This document shows positions 24,489 through 41,569 of a stretch of DNA of 64,000 nucleotides, in pieces. The position numbers and the translations under genes were made by a program. Where the stretch lies: NCBI GenBank assembly GCA_024404325.1, contig JAKSQC010000001.1, positions 13,340 to 77,339 of the forward strand. Direction: 5' to 3'. The number at the start of each line of letters is the position of its first letter. Positions within the stretch are counted from its first letter, which is position 1. Under the pieces are notes generated by a model that saw nothing but the letters and a program-made list of their open reading frames with translations, was not told where the DNA came from and did no database searches. Source of the stretch: Clostridia bacterium. Its GTDB lineage: Bacteria; Bacillota; Clostridia; Oscillospirales; Acutalibacteraceae.

Positions 24489-24780
24489 TTTTCTCCGTTT
24501 CCGACAAGTTGTCAAGTGCTATTCTGTATCCGTTTGAGCCGTAGGTAAGGCAACGGTTTACCCTGCTGATAGTTGCAGTACTTACCCCCACCTTTTCGGC
24601 TATCTTTTGATAACTTAACCCCTCGTCTAAAAGTATAGCGGTATCAAAACGCTGTGCCATATCCTGAATTTCTTTTATGGTACACAAATCGTCAAAAAAC
24701 GCCTCACATTCTTTGGGTGTCTTTATATTCGATATTGCCTTGAAAAGCCTTTGTATTGACCTGTTTTGATAATTAGGCAT
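24472..24780 (-). CDS. TrpR-like YerC/YecD-family DNA-binding protein, first gene of the his operon (HisR-type candidate)
   Basis: 102 aa from ATG 24780 (SD GGGAG). It has the family-typical LCTIKEIQDMAQRF and YQKIAEKVGVSTATISRVNRCL helix-turn-helix. It overlaps the hisZG start by ~14 nt, suggesting translational coupling. Confidence 0.75.
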   Translation of the reverse strand: MPNYQNRSIQRLFKAISNIKTPKECEAFFDDLCTIKEIQDMAQRFDTAILLDEGLSYQKIAEKVGVSTATISRVNRCLTYGSNGYRIALDNLSETEKNDDGE

Positions 24781-26069: not shown

Positions 26070-26339
26070 ATTTTAAAGGCTATGACGAAGACGGCTTTGC
26101 TTTTTTATTCAAGAGAGCGGATGTTTGGTGCAAATTCCGTATAAAAAATCAAAACAGCCCATCACTTCCGAGCCGGATAGCTGAAAATCACAGTAGGCGT
26201 ATCCCGTGATTGCTGCGTAAAGGCATAAGGGTTGTCAGACCCTGAGTGGCAGTATTTACTGCAATTTGAGTGGTACCGCGAGTGTATGAATTTTTCCACA
26301 CCCGTCTCAAAGCAAATGTTTTGAGACGGGTGTTTTTTT
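26070..26339 (+). promoter_or_regulatory. T-box leader 1, specifier AUC (Ile)
   Basis: Stem I base GGCT/AGCC has K-turn TGA..GA, an AGAGAG bulge and a GGTGCAA distal loop. The specifier layout is ATC-A-CTTCC-GA-GCC, with ATC at 26161-26163. The T-box sequence AATTTGAGTGGTACCGCG lies at 26263-26280. The terminator CACCCGTCTCAAA/TTTGAGACGGGTG (26299-26332) is followed by T7. Confidence 0.9.
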
Positions 26340-26355
26340 GCAGGAGGACTTTAAA

Positions 26356-28623
26356 ATGTCGACAGTAAAATCAAACAAACTAATGGAAGTTGCAACACGT
26401 ATTCGTGAAATGCGTCAGATTTTCGGTTTTACCGAAGAAGAAATGGCACAAAAAACCGAAGTGACTTTAAGTGAATATCAAGACTATGAAACAGGAAAAC
26501 TTGATTTTCCTTTTACCTTTATTCATAAATGTTCTCTTGCTTTTGGAATAGGAATTACAGACCTGCTTGAGGGACAAAGTGCCCACCTTTCGTCATATAC
26601 GGTAACAAGAAAAGGTCAAGGTACGCAGACGGCGGAAGAAGACGGCATTGAAATACGCAACTTAGCACCAATGTTCCGTAATAAGATAGCAGAACCTTAT
26701 TGGGTTAAATATGAATATAGTAAAGAACTTCAAAACAAGCCAATTCATTTAACAAAACATTCGGGACAGGAATTTGACCTTGTACTCAAAGGCAGACTGA
26801 AAGTACAAGTAGGTGATAATATAGAGTATTTAAGCGAGGGTGACAGTATCTACTACAACAGTTCTACCCCTCACGGTATGATTGCGGTAGACGGGGAAGA
26901 ATGTTTGTTTGTAGCGGTAGTTCTCCCCGGTGCTAATCAGGAAGAAATACTTATAAGAGATACCCTGCTGACGTCAAAAAACCACAACAAGAAACTTGTC
27001 AGCGAAAAGTTTGTAAGTGTTAAGGAAAATCAGGACGGCTATCCTATATCCATTAACTTTAAGAATGAAGACAAATTTAATTTTGCATTTGATATAGTAG
27101 ACGAGATAGCGAAACGTGAGCCTGACAAACTTGCCTTACTTCACATTTCACAGGATAAAACCGAACGCAGATTTACTTTTAACGATATTAAACGTGCGTC
27201 CAATCAGTGTGCAAACTACTTTAAGTCACTCGGCATTAAAAAGGGTGACAGGGTAATGTTGGTACTCAAACGCCACTATGAATTTTGGTTTTCAATCATT
27301 GCACTTCATAAATTAGGTGCAATAGTAATACCCGCAACAAATCAACTTCAAAAGCACGATTTTGAATATAGATTTAAAGCGGCAGGAGTAAGTGCGATAG
27401 TATGCACTTCCGACGGCGATGTTGCAAATCAGGTTGACTTGGCGTCTGAAAACTACCCCCAACTCACAACAAAAATAATAGTGGGCACAAAAAGAGACGG
27501 TTGGCACAACCTAAAGGAAGAATACAACATTTACAGTGCACACTTTTACCGCACCGAAGATACCCCCTGCGGAAACGAGCCTATGCTTATGTTCTTCACT
27601 TCGGGTACTACGGGATATCCTAAAATTGCAACCCACACATATAAATACCCGTTAGGTCACTATTTAACGGCTAAATATTGGCACGGAGTAAGTGATGACG
27701 GACTTCACCTTACAATATCCGATACGGGTTGGGGTAAAGCGTTATGGGGTAAACTCTACGGTCAGTGGCTATGTGAGGGAGCAGTATTTGCCTATGACTT
27801 TGACCGTTTCGATGCAAGCGAGATACTTCCGATGTTTGCAAAATATCAAATAACAACATTTTGTGCGCCGCCGACAATGCTTAGAATGATGATAAAACAG
27901 GATATATCGCATTATGACTTTTCATCCGTAAAGCGTATGACAACGGCAGGTGAGGCACTTAATCCTGAGGTTTACCGTCAGTTTGAAAAGGCGACGGGAC
28001 TTCAAATTATGGAGGGTTTCGGTCAAACCGAAACCACGCTTACCGTTGCAAACTTTATGGGCGGTTCTCATAAATTAGGTTCTATGGGCAGACCGTCACC
28101 GCTTTATGATATAGATATTATAAATGCCGAGGGCAAAAGCGTTGCAGACGGTGAAACGGGCGAAATCGTAATACGAACAGACAAAGAAGTCCCCTGCGGA
28201 CTGTTTACGGGATACTATAAAGACGAGCAAAAGACAAAAGAGGTATGGCATGACGGATATTACCACACGGGTGATTCGGCGTGGCGTGACGAGGACGGAT
28301 ATTATTGGTACGTAGGTAGAGTTGACGACGTAATCAAGTCTTCGGGTTACAGAATAGGGCCGTTTGAAATTGAAAGCGTTATTATGGAACTGCCTTACGT
28401 TTTAGAGTGTGGAGTATCTGCCGCCCCCGACGAGGTAAGAGGACAGGTAGTAAAAGCAAGCATTGTTCTTGTAAACGGCACTAAGCCTTCAGAGGAACTT
28501 AAAAAGGAAATTCAAAATTACGTAAAAACCCATACTGCACCTTATAAATATCCGCGTATAGTCGAGTTCAAAGACAGTCTGCCTAAAACTGTTAGTGGAA
28601 AAATACAGAGAAATCTGTTATAA
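26356..28623 (+). CDS. Three-domain fusion: XRE HTH + cupin + AMP-forming (medium/short-chain) acyl-CoA synthetase
   Basis: ATG 26356 lies 8 nt after AGGAGG. Residues ~10-75 are HTH_3-like. Residues ~100-195 are a cupin (HSGQEFDLVLKG...GDSIYYNSSTPHGM). The remainder has adenylate-forming motifs FTSGTTGYPK, GFGQTE, YHTGD, GRVDDVIKSSGYRIGPFEIE and PKTVSGKIQR. Confidence 0.9.
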   Translation: MSTVKSNKLMEVATRIREMRQIFGFTEEEMAQKTEVTLSEYQDYETGKLDFPFTFIHKCSLAFGIGITDLLEGQSAHLSSYTVTRKGQGTQTAEEDGIEIRNLAPMFRNKIAEPYWVKYEYSKELQNKPIHLTKHSGQEFDLVLKGRLKVQVGDNIEYLSEGDSIYYNSSTPHGMIAVDGEECLFVAVVLPGANQEEILIRDTLLTSKNHNKKLVSEKFVSVKENQDGYPISINFKNEDKFNFAFDIVDEIAKREPDKLALLHISQDKTERRFTFNDIKRASNQCANYFKSLGIKKGDRVMLVLKRHYEFWFSIIALHKLGAIVIPATNQLQKHDFEYRFKAAGVSAIVCTSDGDVANQVDLASENYPQLTTKIIVGTKRDGWHNLKEEYNIYSAHFYRTEDTPCGNEPMLMFFTSGTTGYPKIATHTYKYPLGHYLTAKYWHGVSDDGLHLTISDTGWGKALWGKLYGQWLCEGAVFAYDFDRFDASEILPMFAKYQITTFCAPPTMLRMMIKQDISHYDFSSVKRMTTAGEALNPEVYRQFEKATGLQIMEGFGQTETTLTVANFMGGSHKLGSMGRPSPLYDIDIINAEGKSVADGETGEIVIRTDKEVPCGLFTGYYKDEQKTKEVWHDGYYHTGDSAWRDEDGYYWYVGRVDDVIKSSGYRIGPFEIESVIMELPYVLECGVSAAPDEVRGQVVKASIVLVNGTKPSEELKKEIQNYVKTHTAPYKYPRIVEFKDSLPKTVSGKIQRNLL

Positions 28624-28672: not shown

Positions 28673-28988
28673 TAATTAAAGACTTTGACGAAGAGTGTAT
28701 AAAAATACGTCCTATGCCAAAGCATTTAAACTTGAACTTGAATGTTTTGGCATCAGAGAAATGACGGTTGGTGCAAGTCATCGGAAACGGTTTTTATATT
28801 TGTAGCTTCCGAGTCGGGAAGAAGAACGGGCAAAACCTTAGTAGAACTTCTCCGTGATTGCTGCGTAAATGCATAAGGGTTGTCAGACCCTGAGTGGCAG
28901 TATTTACTGCAATTTGAGTGGTACCGCGGGTGTTTAAGATTATCACACTCGTCTCAAAGTTATCATTGCTTTGGGACGGGTGTTTTTG
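28673..28988 (+). promoter_or_regulatory. T-box leader 2, specifier GUA (Val)
   Basis: Stem I base GACT/AGTC has K-turn TGA..GA, an AGAGA bulge and a GGTGCAA loop. The specifier layout is GTA-G-CTTCC-GA-GTC, with GTA at 28802-28804. The T-box sequence lies at 28911-28928. The terminator (28947-28959 / 28969-28981) is followed by T5. Confidence 0.9.
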
Positions 28989-29015
28989 TATGTCCGTCCG
29001 GAAAGGTTGAGAAAT

Positions 29016-31313
29016 ATGGGACAAAATAACGGTCTTGATTTTAAAATCAAAGAAATGTCTTCAAGAATTCGCGAACTTCGTGAAATCACGGGTTATACAA
29101 CCGAAGAAATGGCGAAAAAGACCGACGTCAGCACCGAGGAATATATAAAATGCGAAAACGGGGAGGCAGACCTTAACTTTGCTTTTATTTACCGTTGTGC
29201 CATTGCCTTTGGTGTGAACGTTACCGATATTATTGAAGGTGTAAGCCCGACGCTTACTTCTTATACTCTTACAAGAAGCGGTCAAGGTCAAAAGATAGAC
29301 CAAGCACACGGAATGGTATACTATAATTTAGCGGCTGCTTTTCAAAACAGAATAGCAGAGCCTTTATACGTTTGCAGTGCATACAGTGAAGAGGCACAAC
29401 ATAAAGATATAGAGTTGACAACACATTCAGGACAGGAATGTGATATAGTAGTTTCAGGTCATCTTACGGTGCAGGTAGGCCGCCACAAGGAAACATTGGG
29501 ACCCGGCGACAGTATTTATTATGACAGTTCCACACCTCACGGTATGATTGCGGTAAACGGTGAAGACTGCATATTTTACGCAATAGTACTTAATCCTACG
29601 GGCGAGCCGATACCCGAACTTTCAAGTACGGTTGAAAATGTTACTTTAAAAGAAACAAAACCGTCCAAAAAGGATAATAAGGAAAGAATATACCGTAAGT
29701 TTATAGACACCGAGGTTGACGAAAACGGCACACCTACAAAAATAACGTTTAAAAATGAAGATAAGTTTAATTTTGCATTTGATTTGGTGGACGCACTTGC
29801 AGACCGCGAACCCGATAAACTTGCAATGCTTCATATATCAAGGGATATGACAGAACGCCGTTTTACCTTTAAAGATATAAAAAAGGCATCTAATCAGTGT
29901 GCTAACTATTTTAAGTCTTTGGGCATTAAAAAAGGTGACAGAGTAATGCTTTGTCTTAAGCGTCACTATCAATTCTGGTTCTGTATGTTAGGTCTTAATA
30001 AACTCGGTGCTGTTGCGATACCTGCCGTAAATCAGTTGCAGGAACACGATTTTGAGTACCGTTTTAAGTCTGCCGGTATAAGTGCGGTTATTTGTACTGC
30101 CGACGGCGACACTGCACATCAAATGGACTTGGCGGCGGAAAAATGTCCCGACCTTACGATAAAACTTATAGTAAACGGTACGCGTGAGGGTTGGAAAAAC
30201 TTTGACGAAGAATACCCCCTTTTCAGCACACATTTTAAAAGAACCGCCGATTCACCCTGCGGTAATGACACTATGATTATGTATTTTACGTCGGGTACTT
30301 CGGGTTATCCGAAAATCGCAACCCATTCTCATAAGTATCCTTTAGGGCATTTCCATACTGCAAAGTATTGGCATCACGTTGACCCTGACGGACTTCACCT
30401 TACAATATCCGATACCGGTTGGGCAAAGGCTATGTGGGGTAAACTTTACGGACAGTGGCTATGCGAGGCGGCAACCTTTGTTTATGACTTTGACCGTTTT
30501 GATGCAAGCGAAATACTGCCGATGTTCGCAAAGTATAATATTACTACTTTTTGTGCACCGCCTACAATACTCAGAATGATGGTTAAGCAGGATATATCAA
30601 AGTATGATTTTTCATCGGTAAAGCATATGACTACGGCGGGAGAGGCGCTTAACCCCGAAGTTTACCGTCAGTTCAAAAATGCTACGGGACTTAAAATTAT
30701 GGACGGTTTCGGTCAAACCGAATCGACTATGATTATAGGAAATCTTGTAGGTATGCAACATAAATTAGGCTCTATGGGTAAACCCGCACCTATTTATGAC
30801 GTTGACCTTATTGATGAAAACGGTAACACGGTAGCCGTAGGCGAAACAGGTGAAATTGTTATAAACGTTAAAAACGGTGCACCTTGCGGACTGTTTAAGG
30901 GTTATTATAAAGACGAAGAAAAAACCAAAGAGGTCTGGCACGACGGATATTACCACACGGGTGATTCTGCGTGGCGTGATGAGGACGGATACTATTGGTA
31001 CGTAGGCAGAGTTGACGACGTAATCAAGTCTTCGGGTTACAGAATAGGGCCGTTTGAAATCGAAAGTGTTATTATGGAACTGCCTTACGTTTTAGAGTGC
31101 GGCGTATCAGCCGCCCCCGACGAGGTAAGAGGACAGGTAGTAAAGGCAAGCATTGTTCTTGTAAACGGCACTAAGCCTTCAGAGGAACTTAAAAAGGAAA
31201 TTCAAACTTATGTTAAAACACATACCGCACCTTATAAATATCCTCGTATAGTAGAATTCCGCGACAGTCTGCCTAAGACGGTTACGGGTAAAATACAAAG
31301 GAACAAACTTTAA
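29016..31313 (+). CDS. Paralogous XRE HTH + cupin + AMP-forming acyl-CoA synthetase fusion
   Basis: Same three-domain order as 26356-28623. Has FTSGTSGYPK, GFGQTE and YHTGD. The C-terminal ~115 aa are identical to the paralog. The start is ATG 29016; the ORF track start 28971 lies inside the T-box terminator. Confidence 0.9.
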   Translation: MGQNNGLDFKIKEMSSRIRELREITGYTTEEMAKKTDVSTEEYIKCENGEADLNFAFIYRCAIAFGVNVTDIIEGVSPTLTSYTLTRSGQGQKIDQAHGMVYYNLAAAFQNRIAEPLYVCSAYSEEAQHKDIELTTHSGQECDIVVSGHLTVQVGRHKETLGPGDSIYYDSSTPHGMIAVNGEDCIFYAIVLNPTGEPIPELSSTVENVTLKETKPSKKDNKERIYRKFIDTEVDENGTPTKITFKNEDKFNFAFDLVDALADREPDKLAMLHISRDMTERRFTFKDIKKASNQCANYFKSLGIKKGDRVMLCLKRHYQFWFCMLGLNKLGAVAIPAVNQLQEHDFEYRFKSAGISAVICTADGDTAHQMDLAAEKCPDLTIKLIVNGTREGWKNFDEEYPLFSTHFKRTADSPCGNDTMIMYFTSGTSGYPKIATHSHKYPLGHFHTAKYWHHVDPDGLHLTISDTGWAKAMWGKLYGQWLCEAATFVYDFDRFDASEILPMFAKYNITTFCAPPTILRMMVKQDISKYDFSSVKHMTTAGEALNPEVYRQFKNATGLKIMDGFGQTESTMIIGNLVGMQHKLGSMGKPAPIYDVDLIDENGNTVAVGETGEIVINVKNGAPCGLFKGYYKDEEKTKEVWHDGYYHTGDSAWRDEDGYYWYVGRVDDVIKSSGYRIGPFEIESVIMELPYVLECGVSAAPDEVRGQVVKASIVLVNGTKPSEELKKEIQTYVKTHTAPYKYPRIVEFRDSLPKTVTGKIQRNKL

Positions 31314-31315
31314 TT

Positions 31316-31981
31316 ATGGAAAACTTTAAGCGTATTACCCTTTTGTGCGGTCACTACGGAAGCGGTAAAACAAATATCGCGGTCAATATGGCATACGAAC
31401 TTAAAAAGAAATATTCAAATGTTGCCATAGCCGACCTCGATATAGTAAACCCGTACTTTCGCACCAAGGACAGCATAAAAGAGTTTGAAAAAAGGGATAT
31501 AAAGTTAATTTGCTCAAAATATGCAGGCTCTAATGTAGATATACCCGCCCTCCCACAGGAGATGTATGCACTTACAGACGATAGGCAAATGCACTGTATA
31601 ATAGACGTCGGCGGGGACGACAGAGGTGCGTTGGCACTCGGTCGCCTATCCCCTGCAATAAAAGAAGAAAACGATTATGATATGCTTATGGTTATAAACT
31701 GTTACCGTCCGCTGACGCGTGACGTACCCTCAACCATAAATATTATGCGTGAAATAGAAACCGCTTCGGGTATTAAGTTTACAGGTCTTATAAACAACTC
31801 AAATTTAGGTAAGCTTACAACAAAGCAAACGGTTATCGATTCACTTAAATTTGCCGACGGTGTTTCAAAGGCTTCGGGACTTCCGATATTTTGCACCGCA
31901 GTAAAACAAGGTTTATTTGACAGAAAAGACGGCAGTTTAAAAAACGTCTTTCCGATAGAACTTCAAGAAAACATATACTGA
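31316..31981 (+). CDS. Uncharacterised SIMIBI-class P-loop NTPase (CooC/GPN-loop-like)
   Basis: 221 aa with Walker A GHYGSGKT, DLDIVNPYF, Walker-B-like IIDVGGDD and an NNSN block. It starts 2 nt after the ACS2 stop. Confidence 0.7.
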   Translation: MENFKRITLLCGHYGSGKTNIAVNMAYELKKKYSNVAIADLDIVNPYFRTKDSIKEFEKRDIKLICSKYAGSNVDIPALPQEMYALTDDRQMHCIIDVGGDDRGALALGRLSPAIKEENDYDMLMVINCYRPLTRDVPSTINIMREIETASGIKFTGLINNSNLGKLTTKQTVIDSLKFADGVSKASGLPIFCTAVKQGLFDRKDGSLKNVFPIELQENIY

Positions 31982-31996
31982 TAAGGAGCGATGAAT

Positions 31997-32203
31997 ATGG
32001 CAAAACTTAAGTTCAAAACAGATTTTTGTAAAGGTTGCGGACTGTGTGTAGACGCTTGTCCAAAAAAACTGTTAAAACTCGCAACCGACAAAATCAATAA
32101 AAAGGGACATCATCCGGCAGAAATAACCGATCAAGATTCCTGTACGGGTTGCACAAGTTGTGCAATAATGTGTCCGGACTGTGTAATAACGGTAGAAAGG
32201 TAA
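31997..32203 (+). CDS. 2-oxoacid:ferredoxin oxidoreductase delta subunit (2x[4Fe-4S] ferredoxin)
   Basis: Has CKGCGLCVDACP and CTGCTSCAIMCP motifs. ATG 31997 lies 8 nt after AGGAG. Confidence 0.85.
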   Translation: MAKLKFKTDFCKGCGLCVDACPKKLLKLATDKINKKGHHPAEITDQDSCTGCTSCAIMCPDCVITVER

Positions 32204-32211
32204 GTGAAATT

Positions 32212-33273
32212 ATGGCTGATAAAGTACTTATGAAAGGTAACGAAGCCTTAGCGGAAGCCGCAATATTAGCAGGTTGCCGTCACTACTTCGGTTATCCTAT
32301 CACCCCGCAGACAGAGGTTGCGGCTTATATGGCAAAAAAGATGCCGAAAATCGGCGGAACGTTTTTGCAGGCGGAAAGTGAAATTGCCGCTATAAATATG
32401 GTATACGGTGTTTCTTCGGCAGGTCACCGCGTTATGACATCATCTTCAAGCCCCGGAATTTCCTTAAAGGGCGAGGGAATATCATATCTTGCCGGTGCAG
32501 ACCTTCCTGCACTCGTAGTAAACGTACAGCGTGGGGGTCCGGGACTCGGAGGCATACAACCGAGCCAGTCCGACTATTTTCAGGCTACAAAGGGTGCCGC
32601 ACACGGCGACTTCCATATGATAGTATTAGCACCTGCATCTGTTCAGGAAATGGCAGAGCTGACCATTAAGGGATTTGAACTTGCAGACAAGTACAGAATG
32701 ACCTCTATGATTTTGGCAGACGGTACTATGGGACAGATGATGGAACCTGTTGACCTTGATTTTAAAATCACACCCGAACCCGAAAAGCCTTGGGCAACTA
32801 CGGGTACAAAACTCAAAAGAAATCATAACATAGTAAATTCTCTTTCCCTTGTTCCCGAAGAACTTGAACAACTCAATATAGCACGTTATGAGCGTTATAA
32901 GACGGTTGAAGAAAACGAATGTATGTATGAGGAATACTTAGTAGACGATGCCGATATAGTGCTTGTAGCATTCGGTATTACTTCGAGAGTTTCAAAACAC
33001 GCTATTGACAATGCAAGAGAACAAGGCGTAAAGGTCGGTCTTATCCGTCCCATTACCCTTTGGCCGTTCCCGAAAGCACCATTCCAAAAGGCAGTAGGAC
33101 ACGCCAAAGCATTTATAACGGTAGAACTTAATATGGGACAGATGATAGAGGACGTTAAACTTGCAACTAATTGTAAGGTTCCGGTACATCTTTGTAACCG
33201 TGTAGGCGGTATGATTCCTGACCATACACAGGTATATGATAAAATTATGGAAATCAACGAGGAGGTAAAATAA
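32212..33273 (+). CDS. 2-oxoacid:ferredoxin oxidoreductase alpha subunit (VorB/KorA-like)
   Basis: Has N-terminal KGNEALAEAAILAGCRHYFGYPITPQTE and MTSSSSPGISL. The start is ATG 32212; the ORF track start 32149 overlaps the delta gene. Confidence 0.88.
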   Translation: MADKVLMKGNEALAEAAILAGCRHYFGYPITPQTEVAAYMAKKMPKIGGTFLQAESEIAAINMVYGVSSAGHRVMTSSSSPGISLKGEGISYLAGADLPALVVNVQRGGPGLGGIQPSQSDYFQATKGAAHGDFHMIVLAPASVQEMAELTIKGFELADKYRMTSMILADGTMGQMMEPVDLDFKITPEPEKPWATTGTKLKRNHNIVNSLSLVPEELEQLNIARYERYKTVEENECMYEEYLVDDADIVLVAFGITSRVSKHAIDNAREQGVKVGLIRPITLWPFPKAPFQKAVGHAKAFITVELNMGQMIEDVKLATNCKVPVHLCNRVGGMIPDHTQVYDKIMEINEEVK

Positions 33274-33275
33274 CT

Positions 33276-34028
33276 ATGGTAGTATTTGAAAAACCGCACG
33301 CACTTACCGACGTGCCTTTACACTATTGCCCCGGTTGTACTCACGGTATCGTACATAGGCTCGTTGCCGAAGCAATCGACGAACTCGGAATTGAGGGACA
33401 GACAATAGGTATAGCACCCGTTGGTTGTTCGGTAATGGCTTACGATTACTTTAACTGCGATATGATAGAAGCCGCTCACGGACGTGCACCGGCAGTGGCA
33501 ACAGGCGTTAAAAGAGCCGACCCCGATAATCACATAGTATTTACCTATCAGGGCGACGGTGACCTTGCTTCCATAGGTATGGCTGAAACCGTACACGCAG
33601 CGGCAAGAAATGAAAATATAACCGTTATTTTTATAAACAATGCAATTTACGGTATGACAGGCGGTCAGATGGCACCTACTTCCCTGCCCGGTCAGGTTAC
33701 ACAGACTTCTCCTTACGGCAGAGATACATCCCACTGCGGTTATCCTATTAGGGTTTGCGAAATGCTCGCAACATTAGAAGGACCCGAGTATCTTGAAAGG
33801 GTAACCGTAAATAATGTTGCTAACGTACGCAAAGCAAAAAAGGCCATTAAAAAGGCTTTCCAAAACCAAATAGATAAAAAAGGTTTTTCACTAATAGAGG
33901 TTGTATCTTCCTGTCCTACCAACTGGGGTATGACACCGCAAGACGCACTTAAGTGGATAGACGATAATATGCTTCCATATTATCCTCTTGGCGTTTATAA
34001 AGACCGTTCTGCAAAGGAGGAAAAGTAA
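33276..34028 (+). CDS. 2-oxoacid:ferredoxin oxidoreductase beta subunit (TPP-binding)
   Basis: Has a CPGCTHG cluster ligand block and the GDGDLASIG...NNAIYGMTGGQ TPP motif. Confidence 0.88.
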   Translation: MVVFEKPHALTDVPLHYCPGCTHGIVHRLVAEAIDELGIEGQTIGIAPVGCSVMAYDYFNCDMIEAAHGRAPAVATGVKRADPDNHIVFTYQGDGDLASIGMAETVHAAARNENITVIFINNAIYGMTGGQMAPTSLPGQVTQTSPYGRDTSHCGYPIRVCEMLATLEGPEYLERVTVNNVANVRKAKKAIKKAFQNQIDKKGFSLIEVVSSCPTNWGMTPQDALKWIDDNMLPYYPLGVYKDRSAKEEK

Positions 34029-34570
34029 TGAAACTTCCAATACAGTGCTTATTTTCAGGCTTTGGCGGACAGGGTATCCTGTTTTCCGGCAAATTTATGG
34101 CATATAAGGGTATGATTGAGGATAAATTTGTATCATGGCTTCCTTCCTACGGTCCCGAAATGCGTGGCGGTACCGCAAGTTGCAGTGTGGTTATAAGCGA
34201 TAGGGAGATTGCATCTCCCATTATTTCAACACCCGATATTTTGGTTGCAATGAATTTACCGTCACTTGATAAGTACGAAAAAATCGTAAAAAAAGGCGGT
34301 ACAATATTTGTTGACTCAACCCTTATCGAAAGAAAGGTTGAAAGGGACGATGTAAACGTATATTATGTCCCTGCAACCAAACTTGCAAGCGATAATAATA
34401 TGCCGACTCTTGCAAATATGATACTTGTCGGTAAAATATTAAAGGTAAGAAATGAATATTCAGAAGAAAGTGTCCGTGCGGCTCTTACAAAGGTAGTTTC
34501 CGCAAAACACGCCGATTTGCTTGAAGTCAATATGAAAGCAATGCAAATAGGTGCTTCTTACGAGGAATAA
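34028..34570 (+). CDS. 2-oxoacid:ferredoxin oxidoreductase gamma subunit
   Basis: 180 aa with GFGGQGILFSGK and YGPEMRGG blocks. Its ATG overlaps the beta stop (ATGA-type junction). Confidence 0.85.
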   Translation: MKLPIQCLFSGFGGQGILFSGKFMAYKGMIEDKFVSWLPSYGPEMRGGTASCSVVISDREIASPIISTPDILVAMNLPSLDKYEKIVKKGGTIFVDSTLIERKVERDDVNVYYVPATKLASDNNMPTLANMILVGKILKVRNEYSEESVRAALTKVVSAKHADLLEVNMKAMQIGASYEE

Positions 34571-34589
34571 CAAGAAAGGAATTATTGCT

Positions 34590-35651
34590 ATGAATATCAG
34601 AGTTGAAAACACACAGCATCCGTCATCAATGCCGGGTAGTGAATTTGGATTCGGCAGAATTTTTTCAGACCATATGTTTATGATGGACTACAATGCAAAC
34701 GAGGGTTGGCATGATGCAAGAATAGTCCCGTTTGGAAGACTTTCCATTCACCCTGCTTCCACCGTACTTCACTACGGTGCAGAGATATTTGAGGGACTTA
34801 AGGCATACCGCCGTCCCGATGGCGGAGTACAACTTTTCAGACCTATTGAAAATATCCGCCGTATGAATGATTCGGCAGAGCGTTTGTGCTTACCGCAAAT
34901 TCCCGAAGATGAAGCTATGGAAATACTCACCACATTTATCAGTCACGAAAAGGAGTGGACACCGTCAGCCCCTGGAACAACACTTTACATTCGTCCTTTC
35001 CTGTTCGGTAACGATGAATCACTCGGCGTACACGCAGTGAAGAACGCTACTTTCGTAATTATTGCATCACCTACGGGAAGTTATTATAAAGAGGGCTTTA
35101 AGCCGGTACGCATTATGATTGAAGATGAGGACGTAAGAGCAGTACGAGGCGGTACGGGTTATGCTAAATGCGGAGGTAACTACGCAGCAAGCACACGTGC
35201 AGGAGAGAGAGCCGAACAGATGGGTTATTCTCAAGTACTTTGGCTTGACGGTGTTGAGCGTAAGTACATAGAGGAAGTAGGAGCAATGAACGTTATGTTC
35301 AAAATAAACGGCGAAATCGTTACTCCTAAACTTACAGGCTCAATACTCCCCGGTATTACAAGAAAGTCCTGTATTGAACTTTTAAGAAGCAAGGGTTATA
35401 AGGTTTCAGAGCGTCTGCTCAGTCTCCAAGAACTCGTAAGTGCTATGACTGACGGCACACTCGAGGAAGCTTGGGGTTGCGGAACAGCGGCAGTAGTATC
35501 ACCTATCGGTGAGCTTTGCTATAAAGATATTAAGTACGCTATCAACGGCGGTAAAATCGGTGAGCTCACACAAAGCCTTTACGATACCCTTACGGGTATA
35601 CAGTTTGGCAGAAGTGAAGACCCGTTCGGTTGGACTGTTCGTATAGACTAA
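34590..35651 (+). CDS. ilvE: Branched-chain amino acid aminotransferase (long, ~350-aa type)
   Basis: Has FGRIFSDHMF, YGAEIFEGLKAYR, GGTGYAKCGGNYAAS, EEVGAMNVMF and PGITR blocks. Confidence 0.9.
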   Translation: MNIRVENTQHPSSMPGSEFGFGRIFSDHMFMMDYNANEGWHDARIVPFGRLSIHPASTVLHYGAEIFEGLKAYRRPDGGVQLFRPIENIRRMNDSAERLCLPQIPEDEAMEILTTFISHEKEWTPSAPGTTLYIRPFLFGNDESLGVHAVKNATFVIIASPTGSYYKEGFKPVRIMIEDEDVRAVRGGTGYAKCGGNYAASTRAGERAEQMGYSQVLWLDGVERKYIEEVGAMNVMFKINGEIVTPKLTGSILPGITRKSCIELLRSKGYKVSERLLSLQELVSAMTDGTLEEAWGCGTAAVVSPIGELCYKDIKYAINGGKIGELTQSLYDTLTGIQFGRSEDPFGWTVRID

Positions 35652-35665
35652 TCATTTAAAAAGAC

Positions 35666-35694
35666 TTGACATATAATGATTTATGTGGTATAGT
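35666..35694 (+). promoter_or_regulatory. Sigma-A promoter P3 (drives T-box 3)
   Basis: TTGACA, 17 nt, then TATAGT preceded by TGG. It starts 15 nt after the ilvE stop. Confidence 0.65.
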
Positions 35695-35700
35695 TATTAA

Positions 35701-35975
35701 AAATTTCAAATGCATTGATGGAATTATTCCTTTTTTGTATGTCTATTTCAGAGAGCCGTCGGTTGGTGCAAGACGGAAAGGCTTTAAAGGGAAGTCTCAT
35801 TTCGGAGCAGAACTGCCTGAAATTTTAGTAAGCAGTTCCGGTTTGACCCCGTTACCGTGGTCAAGGGCTTGTTTGAGCCTATTTAAGTTGACCGTTTATT
35901 CGGTAAACAGGGTGGTACCGCGGATTAAATTATTCGTCCCTGAAACTGATGTATTTCAGTTTCAGGGATTTTTTG
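35701..35975 (+). promoter_or_regulatory. T-box leader 3, specifier CUC (Leu)
   Basis: Stem I base TGC/GCA has K-turn TGA..GA, an AGAGAG bulge and a GGTGCAA loop. The specifier layout is CTC-A-TTTC-GGA-GCA, with CTC at 35796-35798. The T-box sequence GGGTGGTACCGCGG lies around 35908-35922. The terminator TCCCTGAAACTGA/TCAGTTTCAGGGA (35937-35968) is followed by T6. Confidence 0.9.
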
Positions 35976-35996
35976 TTTTAAAAGGATTGGTGACTT

Positions 35997-37376
35997 ATGA
36001 ATAATATTAAAATTTCAGATTTAACTCTTTGTCTTGTAAGCAGTGATTTGACATTTAAGGAAAAAATAGAAATTGCAAGACAACTTGAAAAGTTACAACT
36101 TGACTGCATTGAACTTCCCGAAATCAAAAAGGTTAAATCTGATACCCTTTTTATACGCACTGTTTCTTCTTTTCTTAAAAACAGTATACTTTCGGTTTGT
36201 GCGGGAAGCAGTATAGAGAGTATAGACAATGCCGTTACGGCACTTAGTGTATGCAAAAAGCCGATGATAAGAATAGAACTTCCGGTATCAACTGTAAGAA
36301 TGGAATATGATTTTCATAAAAAAGCACCAAAAATGCTCGAATGGATAAATAAAACCGTTTGCTATGCTTCGCAAAAATGTGACGTTGAGTTTTGTGCACT
36401 TGATGCCACAAGAGCCGAGTCTGAATTTTTAATTGAAGCACTGAAAACCGCAGAGTCGGCAGGTGCAAAGATAATAACCGTTTGCGATGATGCAGGCGAA
36501 ATGCTTACCGATGAATTTACCGAATTTATAAAGCGTATAAAGAGCAATATATCAACGCCGATATACATTAACTGTAATAATAAAAACGGTATGGCACTTT
36601 CCCTTGCGGCTATTTCAATAAAGAACGGCGATGCACAAGGTGTTAAGACTTCGGTAAACGGTGACACCGTAAGTTTAGAGAATATATCAACTTTTATAAG
36701 AAACTGCGGAGAAAAACACAGTATAATATCAAATATAAGATACACAGAACTTTACCGTACTATCTCCCAAATCAAACGTATTACGGGAAATGTTACTGAA
36801 AGCAATGAAAAGACCGTATCCACAGTTACTTCAAACGATGAAATAAAACTCGATAAAAATGATGACAAAAACACCGTAATCACAATGGTGGCAAGACTCG
36901 GTTATGACCTTTCAAAAGAGGATGAAGACAATGTTTATGAGCAGTTTTTGCGTGTAGCCGATAAAAAGACAGTCGGAGCAAAGGAACTTGATGCGATAGT
37001 AATCAGTTCTGCTTTACAAGTACCGCCCACCTATAAACTTGATAATTATATAGTAAACAGCGGTAATTCTATTTCCTCAAGTGCACAGGTAACGCTTAAA
37101 CACTTTGACAGTGTAACTCAAGGCATAAGCATAGGCGACGGACCTATTGACGCCGCATTTTTGGCTATTGAGCAGATAATAGGTTGTCACTACGATTTAG
37201 AGGACTTCCAAATTCAAACCGTAACCGAGGGCAAAGAGGCAATCGGTTCTGCAATAATCAAACTGCGTTCGGCAGGTAAAATATATTCAGGCAACGGCAT
37301 TTCAACCGATATAATAGAGGCAAGCATAAGGGCGTACTTAAACGCACTTAACAAAATTGCCTACGAGGAGGTATAA
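35997..37376 (+). CDS. 2-isopropylmalate synthase-like protein with degenerate active site (pseudoenzyme) and intact LeuA C-terminal regulatory domain
   Basis: It is colinear with LeuA along its whole length, but the catalytic motifs are replaced: DTTLRDGEQ becomes DLTLCLVSS, HCHNDLG becomes NCNNKNG, and GIGERAGN becomes NGDTVSLEN. The C-terminus (GDGPIDAAFLAIEQI..., ISTDIIEASIRAYLNALNK) matches the LeuA_dimer/allosteric domain. Confidence 0.8.
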   Translation: MNNIKISDLTLCLVSSDLTFKEKIEIARQLEKLQLDCIELPEIKKVKSDTLFIRTVSSFLKNSILSVCAGSSIESIDNAVTALSVCKKPMIRIELPVSTVRMEYDFHKKAPKMLEWINKTVCYASQKCDVEFCALDATRAESEFLIEALKTAESAGAKIITVCDDAGEMLTDEFTEFIKRIKSNISTPIYINCNNKNGMALSLAAISIKNGDAQGVKTSVNGDTVSLENISTFIRNCGEKHSIISNIRYTELYRTISQIKRITGNVTESNEKTVSTVTSNDEIKLDKNDDKNTVITMVARLGYDLSKEDEDNVYEQFLRVADKKTVGAKELDAIVISSALQVPPTYKLDNYIVNSGNSISSSAQVTLKHFDSVTQGISIGDGPIDAAFLAIEQIIGCHYDLEDFQIQTVTEGKEAIGSAIIKLRSAGKIYSGNGISTDIIEASIRAYLNALNKIAYEEV

Positions 37377-37378
37377 CG

Positions 37379-39916
37379 GTGAAATTTTCTTTTTCCACAA
37401 AGGGTTGGCATAACTGTACCTTTGAAGATTTTGTAAGAATTGCAAATGAGCTTCAGTTTCAGGGTATAGAACTGCATAACATCCATAACGAGGCATTTAC
37501 CAAAAAAGGCGGTGCTTTACACGATTATACTGCGGCGGCTACTTTGCGTTATTTAAAAGAAAAAAATCTTTCACTGCCGTGTGTTGATGCGATAGGCGAC
37601 ATTGCAAGTGCCGACAGTGCTGATAATTTAAAGCAGGAAATTTCGCAGTGTATAGAGGTTGCATCACATCTTAAAATTTCATATATAAGGCTAAAGGCGG
37701 AAAAAAGTGACGATATAGATACTGCTACCAAAAACGTAATAAACCTTTTAGAGCAGATGCTACCCATCGCCGAGCAGGAAAATATCACTTTTCTTATTGA
37801 AACTTCTGGACTTTTTGCAAGTTCACTTAAACTCAGGGATATACTCGAATATTTTGCATGTGATAATTTGGCGGCTTTATGGAATTTATCCGATGCTTAT
37901 TTTGAAGCAGGAGAGAGTGCAGAAGAAATAATAAAGAATTTAGGTGCTTATGTACGCCACGTTCACGTAAACGATGCCGTTAAAACCGAAAACGGTACAA
38001 ATTACTGTCTTTTAGGCGAGGGAGAAGTTCCGTTTGAAGAAATTATGCTTGCCTTAAAATCGGTTAATTATGACGGCTTTTTATCGCTTGTATGGGACCC
38101 TGCTTGGTGCGAGGAACTTGACGATATTGAAATACTGTTTTCACAGTTTACAAATTATATGAAGCAGTTTGGCACAACCTACCGCAGGAATAAAACACTT
38201 TATTATAACAAGGCACGCACAGGCGAATTTGTATGGAAAAAAGACCTGCTTATAGACGAAACGTTTTCGCAGGTTCTTGACAGAATGGTTGAGGAATTCC
38301 CCGACCAATATGCCTTTAAGTATACAACACTTGATTACACAAGGACATATTCACAATTCCGTGATGATGTAAATACCTTTGCAAGAGCGTTAGTTGCACT
38401 CGGTGTTAAAAGCGGTACACACGTAGCGGTTTGGGCATCAAATGTACCGCAGTGGTATATAGCCTTTTGGGCGACGGTAAAGTTAGGTGCGGTTCTTGTA
38501 ACGGTAAATACCGCATACAAAATTCACGAGGTAGAGTATCTTTTAAAGCAGTCTGATACGCATACAATAATTATGACGCAGGGTGCTAAAGATACAAACT
38601 ACGGTGAAATTATTGCACAGCTTTGTCCTGAACTTGAAAACAAGAAACCATCTGGGCACCTCCACGCACGCAAACTGCCGTTTTTGAGAAATGTTATTAC
38701 CGTGGGATTTCGTCAAAAGGGTTGCCTTATGTGGAATGATGCATTAGAATTTTCATCACAGGTATCGCTTGAAACGGTAAACCGTATGGCAGATAGTGTA
38801 AATCATAATGACGTATGCAATATGCAGTATACTTCGGGTACAACGGGATTTCCTAAGGGCGTTATGCTGACGCATTATAATATAGTAAATAACGGTAAAT
38901 GTATAGGCGACCGTATGGACTTATCAACTGCTGACAGAATGATGGTACAAGTGCCTATGTTCCACTGTTTTGGAATGGTACTTGCAATGACGGCTACTAT
39001 GACGCACGGCGGTACGCTTTTACCTCTGCCCTATTTCTCACCGAAACCCGCACTTTCCTGTATAAACAACGAAAGAATAACGGCATTTCACGGTGTTCCC
39101 ACAATGTTTATAGCCCTCCTTGAGCACCCCGACTTTGCAAAAACCGACTTTTCTTATATGCGTACGGGAATTATGGCAGGAAGTCCGTGTCCTATTTCTG
39201 CTATGCGTGACGTTATTGATAAAATGAATATGCGTGACATAACAATAGTTTACGGTCAGACCGAAGCCTCCCCCGGTTGTACTATGAGTTCTACCGATGA
39301 TTCCATAGAGATAAGGGTGGGTACTGTCGGCAGACCTCTGCCAGAAATTGAATGTAAGATAGTAGACCCCGAAACGGGAGAAGAATGTCCTATAGGTGTT
39401 ACGGGTGAGTTTATAGCACGCGGTTATAATATAATGAAAGGCTATTATAAAATGCCTAAGGCCACAGCATCTGCCATTGACGCTAAAGGTTGGCTTCACA
39501 CCGGCGACCTTGCCTGCAAAACCGAGGACGGCAACTTCCGTATTACGGGCAGACTTAAAGATATGATAATAAGGGGCGGAGAAAATATCTATCCAAAGGA
39601 AATAGAGGAATTTATTTATACGCATAAAAAGGTCAGTGACGTTCAGGTTGTAGGCGTTCCCGACGAGCAGTACGGCGAGGAAATTTTAGCCTGCATTATA
39701 TTAAAAGAAAACGAGCAAATGACCGTTGATGAGATGAAAACGTATATTGCGGAAAATATGGCACGTCATAAAGTACCGAAATATATTGAGTTTGTGTCCG
39801 AATTTCCGATGAACGCCGCAGGCAAAATTTTGAAATATAAAATAAGAGAGGATGCTGTTAAAAAGTTGGGTTTAAACGCAAACGACAGCATAGTTATGGA
39901 CAATGGTAAACGGTAA
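37379..39916 (+). CDS. Fusion of xylose-isomerase-like TIM barrel (AP_endonuc_2-type) with a FadD-like AMP-forming acyl-CoA ligase
   Basis: Uses a GTG start 7 nt after GAGGAGG. The N-terminal ~270 aa are TIM-barrel-like (GIELHN..., IRLKA..., FLIETSG, HVHVND, SLVWDP). The C-terminal ~560 aa carry YTSGTTGFPKGV, VYGQTE, LHTGDL and GRLKDMIIRGGENIYPKEIE. Confidence 0.85.
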   Translation: MKFSFSTKGWHNCTFEDFVRIANELQFQGIELHNIHNEAFTKKGGALHDYTAAATLRYLKEKNLSLPCVDAIGDIASADSADNLKQEISQCIEVASHLKISYIRLKAEKSDDIDTATKNVINLLEQMLPIAEQENITFLIETSGLFASSLKLRDILEYFACDNLAALWNLSDAYFEAGESAEEIIKNLGAYVRHVHVNDAVKTENGTNYCLLGEGEVPFEEIMLALKSVNYDGFLSLVWDPAWCEELDDIEILFSQFTNYMKQFGTTYRRNKTLYYNKARTGEFVWKKDLLIDETFSQVLDRMVEEFPDQYAFKYTTLDYTRTYSQFRDDVNTFARALVALGVKSGTHVAVWASNVPQWYIAFWATVKLGAVLVTVNTAYKIHEVEYLLKQSDTHTIIMTQGAKDTNYGEIIAQLCPELENKKPSGHLHARKLPFLRNVITVGFRQKGCLMWNDALEFSSQVSLETVNRMADSVNHNDVCNMQYTSGTTGFPKGVMLTHYNIVNNGKCIGDRMDLSTADRMMVQVPMFHCFGMVLAMTATMTHGGTLLPLPYFSPKPALSCINNERITAFHGVPTMFIALLEHPDFAKTDFSYMRTGIMAGSPCPISAMRDVIDKMNMRDITIVYGQTEASPGCTMSSTDDSIEIRVGTVGRPLPEIECKIVDPETGEECPIGVTGEFIARGYNIMKGYYKMPKATASAIDAKGWLHTGDLACKTEDGNFRITGRLKDMIIRGGENIYPKEIEEFIYTHKKVSDVQVVGVPDEQYGEEILACIILKENEQMTVDEMKTYIAENMARHKVPKYIEFVSEFPMNAAGKILKYKIREDAVKKLGLNANDSIVMDNGKR

Positions 39917-40709
39917 ACTTTTTGTTATTGATGCACACTGCCACGTCTACCCCGATAAAATTGCAACCATAGCATCGGGCAATACCGACCGTTTTTACGA
40001 TACAGTATCTAAACACGATGGCAAGGTGGGTACGCTCCTTGATTTAAAAGAGGAAAGCGGTATAGACCGCTTTTTGGTGCAGTCAGTAGCAACCACGCCG
40101 AAACAGGTACAAAGAATAAATCAGTTTATTGCCGATACCGTAAATAACAGTAACGGTATTATGACGGGACTTGGTACTCTCCACCCTGACAGTGCAGATT
40201 TAAAGGCGGACGTAATGCAAATAAAGCAACTTGGTCTTCACGGGGTAAAACTGCACCCCGATATCCAACAGTTTAAAATTGATGATTACAGATGTCTTAA
40301 AATTTATGAACTCTGCGAGCAGGAAAATTTACCTGTTCTTATGCACACGGGTGACAACAGATATGATTTTTCCAATCCAAACCGTCTTTTACCCGTTATA
40401 AAAATATTTGATAAATTAACCCTTGTAGCCGCCCATCTCGGCGGATATTCGGTGTGGGAAGAAGCAGTACAAAAACTTGCAGGTATTAAAAATCTGTATT
40501 TTGACTGTTCATCATCATTTTTTTGGTTAAACCCAAAACGTGCAAAGGAGATAATTGAAATTTACGGTACTGACCGTGTATTATTCGGAAGTGACTATCC
40601 GATGTGGTCGCCCAAAGCAGAACTTGATACCTTGTTATCTCTTGGCTTTGGCGATGATGATTTAAAGATGATTTTATCTGAAAATGCTAAAAAAATTTAT
40701 AATATTTAA
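39903..40709 (+). CDS. Amidohydro_2-family metal-dependent TIM-barrel enzyme (hydrolase/decarboxylase superfamily)
   Basis: Has IDAHCHVYP (HxH), LHPD, MHTGD, AHLGG and FGSDYP. It overlaps the upstream gene by 14 nt. Confidence 0.8.
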   Translation: MVNGKLFVIDAHCHVYPDKIATIASGNTDRFYDTVSKHDGKVGTLLDLKEESGIDRFLVQSVATTPKQVQRINQFIADTVNNSNGIMTGLGTLHPDSADLKADVMQIKQLGLHGVKLHPDIQQFKIDDYRCLKIYELCEQENLPVLMHTGDNRYDFSNPNRLLPVIKIFDKLTLVAAHLGGYSVWEEAVQKLAGIKNLYFDCSSSFFWLNPKRAKEIIEIYGTDRVLFGSDYPMWSPKAELDTLLSLGFGDDDLKMILSENAKKIYNI

Positions 40710-40726: not shown

Positions 40727-41569
40727 ATGAGAAAGTATAAATCAATCACTTTATATTTAATTGTTGCTCTTATGCTTTTATGCCTTTGCGGGTGCAGAAA
40801 AACAAGCACTTCCAATTTAAGTTGTGAAAGCAGTTATCCGTCTATAACATCATCACAAGAAAGCGAAGAAGAACAGACGGAAGAATCGGCACCCGAAAGT
40901 ACACAGGTTTCGGCATCGGTTCAAGAAAACACATCTTCTGCATCTTCTGCATCTTCGGCACAAAAAACACCTGCCAAACCAAAAACCAATCCAAACCCCT
41001 ATCTTCTTAAAGTCAACCGTACACAAAATCTTGTAATTGCATATTCAAAAGACGGAAACGGTGAATATACCGTTCCGGTAAGGGCTATGATATGTTCTGT
41101 CGGTTTAAACGGTGACACTCCTACAGATACATATAAAACACAAAACAAATACGTTTGGCGTCCGCTCATAGGCAATGTTTACGGTCAGTACGCTACAAGA
41201 ATTACGGGAAGTATACTTTTTCACTCGGTGCCATACAGTTCACAAAATAAATCTACTCTTGATTACAATGAGTACAATAAGCTTGGCAGTTCTGCTTCGC
41301 ACGGTTGCGTGAGAATGACGGTAGAAGATGCTAAATGGATATACGATAACTGCCCGCTTGGTACTACCGTAATAATCTATGACAGCAATGCTCCCGAGCC
41401 TCTTGCAAAGCCATCGGCACAAAAAATCGACCCGTCAAGTCCAATGTGTGGTTGGGACCCGACAGACCCTGACCCTGCAAATCCGTGGAAAAATACAACA
41501 CCCGCTCCAAAAGAACCTGAAACCGAACCGCAACAGGAAATAACAGAAGAAACAGAGCAAACAGAATAA
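40727..41569 (+). CDS. L,D-transpeptidase (YkuD domain) lipoprotein
   Basis: Has a signal peptide with lipobox LCLCGC, an S/E/Q-rich linker, and a YkuD catalytic block FHSVP...SHGCVRM. Confidence 0.85.
   Translation: MRKYKSITLYLIVALMLLCLCGCRKTSTSNLSCESSYPSITSSQESEEEQTEESAPESTQVSASVQENTSSASSASSAQKTPAKPKTNPNPYLLKVNRTQNLVIAYSKDGNGEYTVPVRAMICSVGLNGDTPTDTYKTQNKYVWRPLIGNVYGQYATRITGSILFHSVPYSSQNKSTLDYNEYNKLGSSASHGCVRMTVEDAKWIYDNCPLGTTVIIYDSNAPEPLAKPSAQKIDPSSPMCGWDPTDPDPANPWKNTTPAPKEPETEPQQEITEETEQTE

Follow-up and report, generated by a model that had tools for sequence, protein, structure and literature searches.

What may a descendant of 2-isopropylmalate synthase (IPMS, LeuA) be doing once its active site is gone, when it still stands behind a leucine-specific leader and directly precedes the gene for an acyl-coenzyme A (CoA) ligase? 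The question was raised by a 64,000-nucleotide (nt) stretch of contig JAKSQC010000001.1 from a Clostridia bacterium (Acutalibacteraceae); this whole stretch is termed the window, and all unlabelled coordinates refer to it. The gene in question, a LeuA-derived pseudoenzyme gene at 35997..37376 on the plus strand, was called as an open reading frame (ORF) with an ATG start encoding 459 amino acids (aa). Its product, MCQ2440307.1, carries the NCBI name 'hypothetical protein' and is referred to below as the LeuA-like protein. A preliminary description of the locus had presented it as a pseudoenzyme that kept a leucine-binding domain and might regulate the enzymes encoded downstream.

Domain Content and Predicted Fold of the LeuA-Like Protein

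Three parts were distinguished in the LeuA-like protein: a degenerate HMGL-like triosephosphate isomerase (TIM) barrel (residues ~1-265), a shortened linker (~266-327), and a LeuA_dimer regulatory domain (328-454). Pfam recognized both domains above cutoff: HMGL-like with E 3.7e-26 (residues 17-222), and LeuA_dimer with E 9.5e-30 (residues 328-454; profile positions 4-130 of 131). The LeuA equivalogs of NCBIfam all matched the protein, far under their cutoffs (TIGR00973, 257 bits vs cutoff 532; PRK00915, 233 vs 599).

An AlphaFold2 model built with 54 family sequences had a mean predicted local distance difference test (pLDDT) score of 84, and most of the barrel scored above 90. The top PDB matches of this model were methylthioalkylmalate (MAM) synthase 6E1J, Mycobacterium tuberculosis LeuA (1SR9, 3FIG, 3HPZ), and 3EWB; 3rmj was also matched. 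Superposition on the Listeria LeuA barrel 3EWB gave a template modelling (TM) score of 0.90 and a root-mean-square deviation of 1.8 Å, and the matches to M. tuberculosis LeuA and MAM synthase extended across the full length. According to the model, the LeuA fold is retained. The preliminary description had the protein aligning with IPMS end to end. It can indeed be aligned throughout, only with deletions, being 459 aa long against ~500-520 aa for IPMS.

Loss of the LeuA Active Site

Motifs were compared with E. coli LeuA and 120 database relatives. The substrate and metal-binding motif DTTLRDGEQ was replaced by DLTLCLVS followed by a deletion, so that R13 became C12, D14 became L13, and E16 and Q17 were lost. 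SCEDAGR was changed to CALDATR (E141 in E. coli, L135 here), and VHTHDD to INCNNK (H202 to N192 and H204 to N194). Two further replacements were H97 to R92 and E226 to K217. A 5-aa deletion took out the GIGER loop, and a 29-aa deletion in subdomain I removed AHSSGIHQDG and the next Tyr, the HxSGIH/Tyr segment; the latter deletion was seen in all 120 close members. The losses in DTTLRDGEQ, HxH and GIGER had already been reported in the preliminary description, and the same changes appeared in this alignment; the Glu replacement (E141 to L135) and the 29-aa deletion in subdomain I came in addition.

The same positions were followed through 104 broader family representatives (at least 440 aa, 33-60% identity). 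Twelve formerly catalytic positions were lost and variable in all 104. The two former His positions of HxH were occupied by R, S, K, G, E, C, Q and other residues and by S, D, N, A, K and others, respectively; H295 was lost, and H300 was absent from every representative. No shifted register that would restore the catalytic residues, which had been named in advance as the finding that would overturn the pseudoenzyme assignment, was seen in HMMER alignments to 3ewb and 3rmj, which had high posterior probability, or in MAFFT alignments.

The role of these positions is known from the closest solved homologue, MAM synthase 6E1J, in which the metal is held by Asp90, His288 and His290 and the 2-oxo acid by Arg89 and Thr257, while Gln93 and His388 bridge to CoA, and Glu227 and Tyr399 position His388 (PMC11532901). 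Substitutions R89A/K/Q, E227A/D and H388A/Q/D/E inactivate that enzyme; the isosteric mutants E227Q and H388N keep activity at a ~20-40-fold lower efficiency, and the Arg is invariant across DRE-TIM enzymes (PMC11532901). Every one of these positions (D90/H288/H290, R89/T257, Q93, E227, H388/Y399) was substituted or deleted in the LeuA-like protein, and no Claisen-condensation activity is therefore expected. That the LeuA-like protein is a pseudoenzyme without the Claisen-condensation machinery is a well-supported reading of these alignments. As far as sequence goes, the earlier pseudoenzyme call was thus borne out, both by the loss of positions essential in MAM synthase and by their drift in all 104 representatives.

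The losses extended to the allosteric path. In M. tuberculosis IPMS, the leucine signal passes from the regulatory domain to the active site by way of His379 and Tyr410, the latter corresponding to Tyr313 of Neisseria IPMS (PMC9860122). The equivalents of these residues fell in the deleted segment of the LeuA-like protein. With the relay to its own barrel deleted, any leucine signal would have to go elsewhere.

A new Cys-based metal or iron-sulfur site in the barrel (C12, C133, C163, C193) was considered and rejected: C193 corresponds to the ancestral Cys of the firmicute HCH motif and points away from the site, and C12, C133 and C163 are not conserved in the wider family.

Retention of the Regulatory Domain

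Both glycine-rich loops of the regulatory domain were present in the window protein, as GDGPIDAAF (380-388) and GNGISTDII (432-440). Set against the variable former catalytic positions, the loops GxGPxDA and GxGxSTDI were retained across the family: G425, G427, G479 and D483 (E. coli numbering) were invariant in the 104 representatives, and P428, D430 and T482 were kept in more than 90% of them. A well-conserved C-terminal LeuA_dimer domain had been claimed for the protein before, and the Pfam match given above together with the invariant or nearly invariant loops agrees with this. Over 59 syntenic loci the mean pairwise p-distance came to 0.43 in the barrel and 0.48 in the linker, but only 0.23 in the regulatory domain. 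The order was reversed in the single true-LeuA pair compared (E. coli LeuA and the protein P0260), in which the barrel was 50% identical and the regulatory domain 31%. A regulatory domain evolving more slowly than the barrel, alongside drifting catalytic sites, indicates that selection has left the active site and now acts on the sensor domain.

Extent of the Family

A word-indexed search with the LeuA-like protein returned thousands of matches, of which the top 120 were analysed. These were 456-491 aa long (nearly all 456-462), 56-100% identical to the query, and came without exception from metagenome-assembled genomes (MAGs) of Clostridia; in the databases they were named 'hypothetical protein' or '2-isopropylmalate synthase'. 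An exhaustive HMMER search against 1.84 billion cluster representatives yielded more than 100 clusters at 50% identity, whose members were 453-497 aa long (nearly all 453-484), 33-60% identical to the query, and matched in one stretch. Proteins of LeuA length (497-516 aa) appeared only from ~190 bits downward.

When each GTDB species was represented by a single genome, at least 521 species carried the gene. The best 80 of these were all MAGs, assigned to Acutalibacteraceae, Oscillospiraceae, 'Ruminococcus sp.', Eubacteriales, and Monoglobales, and they derived mostly from the rumen or from ruminant gut or faeces. No frameshifts or stops were seen in the LeuA-like ORF in 80 loci, and no fusion of the LeuA-like protein with the ligase (~1300 aa) occurred among the best 150 representatives. 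A canonical second leuA was absent from 1.17 Mb of fetched flanks, a figure that covers flanks only and not whole genomes. No description of the family was found in open-access text on IPMS pseudoenzymes, on Leu T-boxes with acyl-CoA synthetases, or on rumen reductive-carboxylation genes. Judged from these comparisons, pseudoenzyme status is solid and extends to the family as a whole, which is very large and spread among Clostridia of gut and rumen.

The nearest longer relatives of the family were P0257 (511 aa; locus L091, 7001-8536) and P0259 (503 aa; locus L092, 2005-3516). P0257 reads DTTLCDGEQ and IRAYNDLG, and P0259 reads DSTLCEGER and VHSQNDLG; these motifs have Cys in place of the catalytic Arg and lack one or both of the metal-binding His. 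An aconitase-family (LeuC-like) gene directly followed both genes. By their motifs and neighbors, these proteins may be evolutionary intermediates or a second degenerate LeuA class inside leu operons. In two other proteins, P0255 and P0265, R-D and HxH were kept and HxSGIH was missing.

Predicted Leucine-Responsive Leader

The LeuA-like gene had been described as the first gene behind a Leu-specific T-box, and the leader analysis agrees with that. A full-length match to the T-box model RF00230 was found at 35706..35944 on the plus strand (111.6 bits vs gathering score 93), the sole T-box found by Rfam in the window. Its specifier codon is CUC (Leu) at 35796-35798 with a purine next to it (CUC-A, 35796-35799), in a context, GGGAAGuCUCAUUUCGGAG, common to related loci. 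An intrinsic terminator of the T-box at 35936..35979 (plus strand) comprises a 14-bp stem (hairpin 35936-35969) followed by TTTTTTGTTTT and overlaps the T-box/antiterminator sequence. Upstream, at 35666..35694 on the plus strand, lies the best promoter-like site of the region, a putative sigma-70-type promoter with TTGACA and TATAGT separated by 17 nt, an extended TG, and 11 of 12 consensus matches.

Rfam recovered the same leader structure with CUC in three further loci. A survey by pattern was then based on 80 distinct loci with enough upstream DNA, and a T-box core was present in 75 of them. The specifier was CUC in 67 and CUG in four; four more were unparsed by the pattern, two of which read CUC by eye. 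The leucine link of the leader is thus conserved, and the leader is predicted to be a Leu-class T-box. The CUG specifier occurred in L029, L041, L055 and L062 (context GAAAUUCUGGCUCC); this is also a Leu codon and would read another tRNA-Leu isoacceptor.

Coupling to a TIM-Ligase Fusion and an Amidohydrolase

The gene directly downstream (37379..39916, plus strand) encodes a TIM-barrel/acyl-CoA ligase fusion of 845 aa (TIM-ligase), with a xylose-isomerase-like TIM barrel (AP_endonuc_2) at residues 1-~275 and an AMP-forming ligase at ~290-832 (Pfam). The AMP-binding and AMP-binding_C domains were assigned with E 5.7e-94. The junction reads ...GAGGAGGtaTAAcgGTG: the GTG start at 37379 sits 2 nt past the stop of the LeuA-like gene, and a GAGGAGG Shine-Dalgarno sequence lies inside the 3' end of that gene. 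This is the arrangement given in the preliminary description, as reading the sequence again confirmed, and from it the fusion gene is predicted to be translationally coupled to the LeuA-like gene.

Synteny was sampled in 85 fetched loci. In every locus long enough to show the pair, the LeuA-like gene was followed by the TIM-ligase gene, with a gap mostly between -4 and +6 nt. The pair was kept in the remote members L088-L090, whose LeuA-like proteins are 34-39% identical to that of the window; in these loci the ligase domain was 69-75% identical, and the LeuA-like protein and the TIM domain went down to 27-39%. TIM-ligase was the only universally adjacent coupled gene, including at loci with no 2-oxoisovalerate:ferredoxin oxidoreductase (VOR) or IlvE genes nearby (L003, L009, L014, and others). 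Universal adjacency, the small gap, and the conserved Leu T-box make a regulatory or scaffolding partnership between the LeuA-like protein and the ligase more plausible. A physical complex of the two and the direction of regulation are both presumed here.

The TIM domain of the ligase was modelled as a confident TIM barrel (pLDDT 92). Foldseek retrieved generic barrels of the ketose 3-epimerase, AsbF and UlaE-like types, and a homologue search for a stand-alone named relative gave only fragments of the same fusion family. The metal quartet of this domain (37379-38200) was E-N-H-V in the window, against the canonical E-D-H-E. Among 84 members, E-D-H-E was found in 20 and E-N-H-V in 44, the window included; others had E-H-H-I or E-Q-H-V. 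Two remote members had no quartet His. The fused ligase domain of the family, by contrast, stayed 69-86% identical. With E-D-H-E intact in only 20 of 84 members, catalysis by the TIM domain also looks dispensable, and most members seem to have a degenerate barrel.

The third gene of the conserved operon, present in most loci, encodes a predicted Amidohydro_2 metal-dependent hydrolase or decarboxylase of 268 aa (39903..40709, plus strand; PF04909, E 2.5e-31) and overlaps the ligase gene by 14 nt. Its metal motifs (HxH, His, Asp) were conserved, and its closest solved structure was the uncharacterised BB4693. It is followed by a YkuD-type L,D-transpeptidase gene (40727-41569, plus strand), the product of which has a signal- or lipoprotein-like N-terminus and a Ser/Glu-rich linker. 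This gene probably lies outside the operon because it is not conserved there in other loci.

Upstream Cluster and Metabolic Setting

The region upstream of the leader begins with two tandem paralogous genes for fusions of an XRE-type helix-turn-helix (HTH) domain, a cupin, and an acyl-CoA ligase, at 26338-28623 (761 aa) and 28971-31313 (780 aa) on the plus strand (Pfam). The best NCBIfam match of both was MbcS (443-452 bits, below the cutoff of 850). About one in three related loci had HTH-cupin-ligases upstream, and the share was higher where the flank was long enough. With the HTH-cupin modules of these two and the TIM and LeuA-like modules of the third, all three ligases of the region have an N-terminal or trans-acting accessory or sensor module.

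Then follow, also on the plus strand, genes for a CbiA/MinD-like P-loop protein (31316-31981; 221 aa, with no NCBIfam match), a 2x[4Fe-4S]-type ferredoxin (31991-32203), and VOR, with alpha at ~32212-33273, beta at 33276-34028, and gamma at 34028-34570. The VorB model scored 539.5 bits against a cutoff of 399 (NCBIfam). Last comes the IlvE aminotransferase at 34551..35651 (plus strand; probable ATG at ~34590), which belongs to Aminotran_4 and scored 463.7 bits with NF009897 (cutoff 307). In many related loci at least one HTH-cupin-ligase copy was conserved before ferredoxin-VOR-IlvE, and in most the P-loop protein was kept between the HTH-cupin ligase and the ferredoxin-VOR genes. The block of MbcS-like ligase, ferredoxin, VOR, and IlvE stood directly upstream of the T-box operon, whole or in part, in ~40% of related loci. 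Its gene content is what would be expected of a route that turns branched-chain fatty acids into branched-chain amino acids through activation, reductive carboxylation, and transamination.

Rumen bacteria reductively carboxylate branched acyl-CoAs by means of VOR, and rumen ruminococci reportedly make leucine from isovalerate, as Allison and Bryant are said to have found in the 1960s. The ligase of the Leu operon was ~24% identical to the MbcS-like ligases and falls in another subfamily (PRK12583-like). The preferred substrates of purified MbcS are 2-methylbutyrate and isobutyrate, and isovalerate is a poor one (PMC10026030). This would leave isovalerate for the third, Leu-controlled ligase of the other subfamily, and isovalerate is on these grounds its presumed substrate.

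Farther upstream, a his operon on the minus strand opens with a 527-aa ORF (22932-24515) in which a HisRS-like domain (tRNA-synt_His, HisZ-type) is joined to HisG, so that a classic pair of pseudoenzyme regulator and enzyme occurs here in fused form.

Proposed Role and Alternatives

The interpretation favored here is that a non-catalytic LeuA descendant is the leucine-sensing partner of a leucine-starvation-induced, probably isovalerate, CoA ligase; its chances are put a little below even. The Leu T-box (CUC) would restrict synthesis of the LeuA-like protein to times of uncharged tRNA-Leu, and the protein would be co-translated with the TIM-ligase and, in most loci, the Amidohydro_2 enzyme. 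The ligase would activate an acid with the leucine skeleton, most likely isovalerate, to its CoA ester, which the ferredoxin-dependent VOR would reductively carboxylate to 4-methyl-2-oxopentanoate and IlvE would transaminate to leucine. The LeuA-like dimer would bind leucine, taken to be the ligand of its regulatory domain, and as a trans-acting subunit would throttle or organize the ligase, with the ligase's own largely degenerate TIM barrel as a possible docking surface. Fast end-product feedback would then be layered over slower T-box control, as with true LeuA in the classical pathway. In the full evolutionary version, Oscillospirales that took to making leucine from environmental isovalerate would have kept LeuA, rid it of catalysis, and put its regulatory domain to work in trans, where it would give feedback to a non-homologous enzyme of the committed step, the acyl-CoA ligase, perhaps by docking on the TIM barrel fused to it; this is regarded as a bold and rather doubtful extension.

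Several observations weigh against a leucine sensor for this ligase. When the regulatory domain alone was compared with PDB sequences, the best match, the regulatory domain of Leptospira CimA, reached only E ~1, too weak for mapping leucine contacts; in place of leucine, Ile, Val, a 2-oxo acid, or isovalerate may be bound. In NCBIfam the ligase was matched best by PRK12583 ('fatty acid CoA ligase family'), with 685 bits against a cutoff of 832, and its solved relatives are diverse. A mirror-tree comparison of the LeuA-like protein with the TIM domain gave a partial r of 0.66, against 0.60 for the amidohydrolase, which is not discriminating. The proposal also explains neither the role of the TIM domain nor that of the amidohydrolase. 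Finally, the most remote member examined (L087, 1287-2693; 33% identical) stands alone after a tRNA gene, lacks both T-box and ligase, and has on its flanks genes for RhuM and HTH proteins that resemble mobile-element cargo.

One alternative is a sensor that binds something else (Ile, Val, 4-methyl-2-oxopentanoate, isovalerate) or acts on another protein (VOR, IlvE, a transporter, the amidohydrolase). The homologous regulatory domain of citramalate synthase binds Ile (PMC9860122), the VOR/IlvE cluster is often adjacent, and the amidohydrolase co-occurs in most loci; yet TIM-ligase is the sole gene that is adjacent and coupled everywhere, and the specifier is a Leu codon wherever it is readable, so a different ligand or target is considered unlikely. 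Sensing might also be absent altogether. The dead dimer would then be a structural scaffold or assembly subunit that stabilizes or oligomerizes TIM-ligase, or links it to VOR and IlvE as a metabolon, and the regulatory domain would have been kept for dimerization. LeuA_dimer is, as its Pfam name says, also a dimerization domain, the synteny is tight and translationally coupled, and the barrel fold is kept at high model confidence. The invariant residues, however, form the glycine-rich loops GxGPxDA and GxGxSTDI and no general surface, as is typical of a small-molecule site, and in an operon that already senses leucine by its T-box a leucine link is expected. A pure scaffold is accordingly held to be somewhat more unlikely still.

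A different kind of explanation gives the barrel itself a new task, namely a neofunctionalized enzyme or carrier whose remodelled barrel would act on the product of the ligase by metal-independent catalysis or substrate binding. Members of the close subfamily (at least 56% identity) do share several newly fixed residues on the barrel face (C12, R92, E94, C163, K217, T218), and D142, R145 and D170 (E. coli numbering) were kept in nearly all 104 representatives. In the wider family the new residues were not conserved: H97 was replaced by R, Q, N, S, C and others, F99 by E, S, A and others, and both former His positions varied. The barrel and linker moreover evolve fastest, and the idea of a Cys cluster failed, which together make a new barrel function improbable. 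The last alternative, a functionless relic in which a decaying leuA is still transcribed behind its old T-box, would account for the loss of all catalytic residues and for the NCBI name 'hypothetical protein'. Against it stand the spread of intact full-length ORFs over more than 100 clusters (50% identity) and the genomes of at least 521 species, invariant regulatory motifs, a confident fold, conserved translational coupling, and the 80 loci free of frameshifts and stops. A relic is effectively excluded by this conservation and is given hardly any credence.

Implications

Thousands of gut and rumen proteins are labelled 'hypothetical' or '2-isopropylmalate synthase'. Placed on a dead LeuA, the latter label would mislead metabolic models of uncultured Oscillospirales into including the classical leucine pathway. 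The need of fibre-degrading rumen bacteria for branched-chain volatile fatty acids has been recognized for a long time, and the operon provides a concrete, leucine-regulated set of candidate genes for the branch from isovalerate to leucine. Together, the role as a regulatory partner and this metabolic context form a coherent, unproven picture. If it is true, a feedback sensor has clearly outlived its own enzyme here and been reassigned to another, an allosteric module having moved from an old pathway to one that replaces or supplements it. A soluble LeuA regulatory scaffold free of catalysis might also serve as a chassis for leucine biosensors.

Comparison With Known Systems

The closest known proteins are LeuA itself (EC 2.3.3.13; a DRE-TIM metallolyase of the Claisen-condensing branch), CimA, and methylthioalkylmalate synthase, with which the LeuA-like protein shares domain order and predicted fold. 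It further shares the regulatory loops of E. coli LeuA and the type of leader, since many Firmicutes have a Leu T-box ahead of leuA. In contrast to LeuA, it is ~50 aa shorter and scores less than half of the curated cutoffs, its gene is not beside leuBCD and is coupled to an acyl-CoA ligase instead, and its barrel evolves faster than its regulatory domain. The protein is LeuA by fold and ancestry and lies outside the enzyme family by the catalytic features that define it.

In its proposed function the protein is most like HisZ and the small subunits of acetohydroxyacid synthase, regulatory polypeptides that are separate from the enzyme and bind an effector. HisZ, a dead histidyl-tRNA synthetase paralogue, is the regulatory subunit of the short-form ATP phosphoribosyltransferase HisG. 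There, and by the present proposal in the LeuA-like case, a paralogue of an amino-acid-handling enzyme loses catalysis and persists as the regulatory partner of the committed enzyme in the pathway to that amino acid. The folds are unrelated, however; the HisZ complex is experimentally established, and the presumed partner of the LeuA-like protein lies outside its ancestral pathway. IlvN and IlvH, the small ACT-domain regulatory subunits of acetohydroxyacid synthase, offer another likeness: a separate polypeptide that binds branched-chain amino acids and gives feedback to a catalytic subunit encoded next to it, as the LeuA-like protein would do. They differ in being small ACT proteins, whereas the LeuA-like protein is a full-length dead enzyme, and in having another catalytic partner.

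Staphylococcus aureus MbcS salvage (PMC10026030) resembles the metabolic setting, with two MbcS-like ligases, ferredoxin, VOR, and IlvE encoded upstream in the window, to which the Leu-controlled ligase would add an isovalerate branch. The Leu-operon ligase differs from MbcS in its N-terminal TIM barrel and its subfamily, and MbcS is not known to have a LeuA-like partner. The regulatory domain was lost from MAM synthases of plants and from alternative isoforms of IPMS (PMC11532901, PMC12994207). These have likewise split LeuA catalysis from regulation, with the opposite outcome: catalysis was kept and the sensor dropped. Seen beside these systems and under the proposal favored here, the LeuA-like family would be a dead-enzyme regulator, a kind already known, in a new form.

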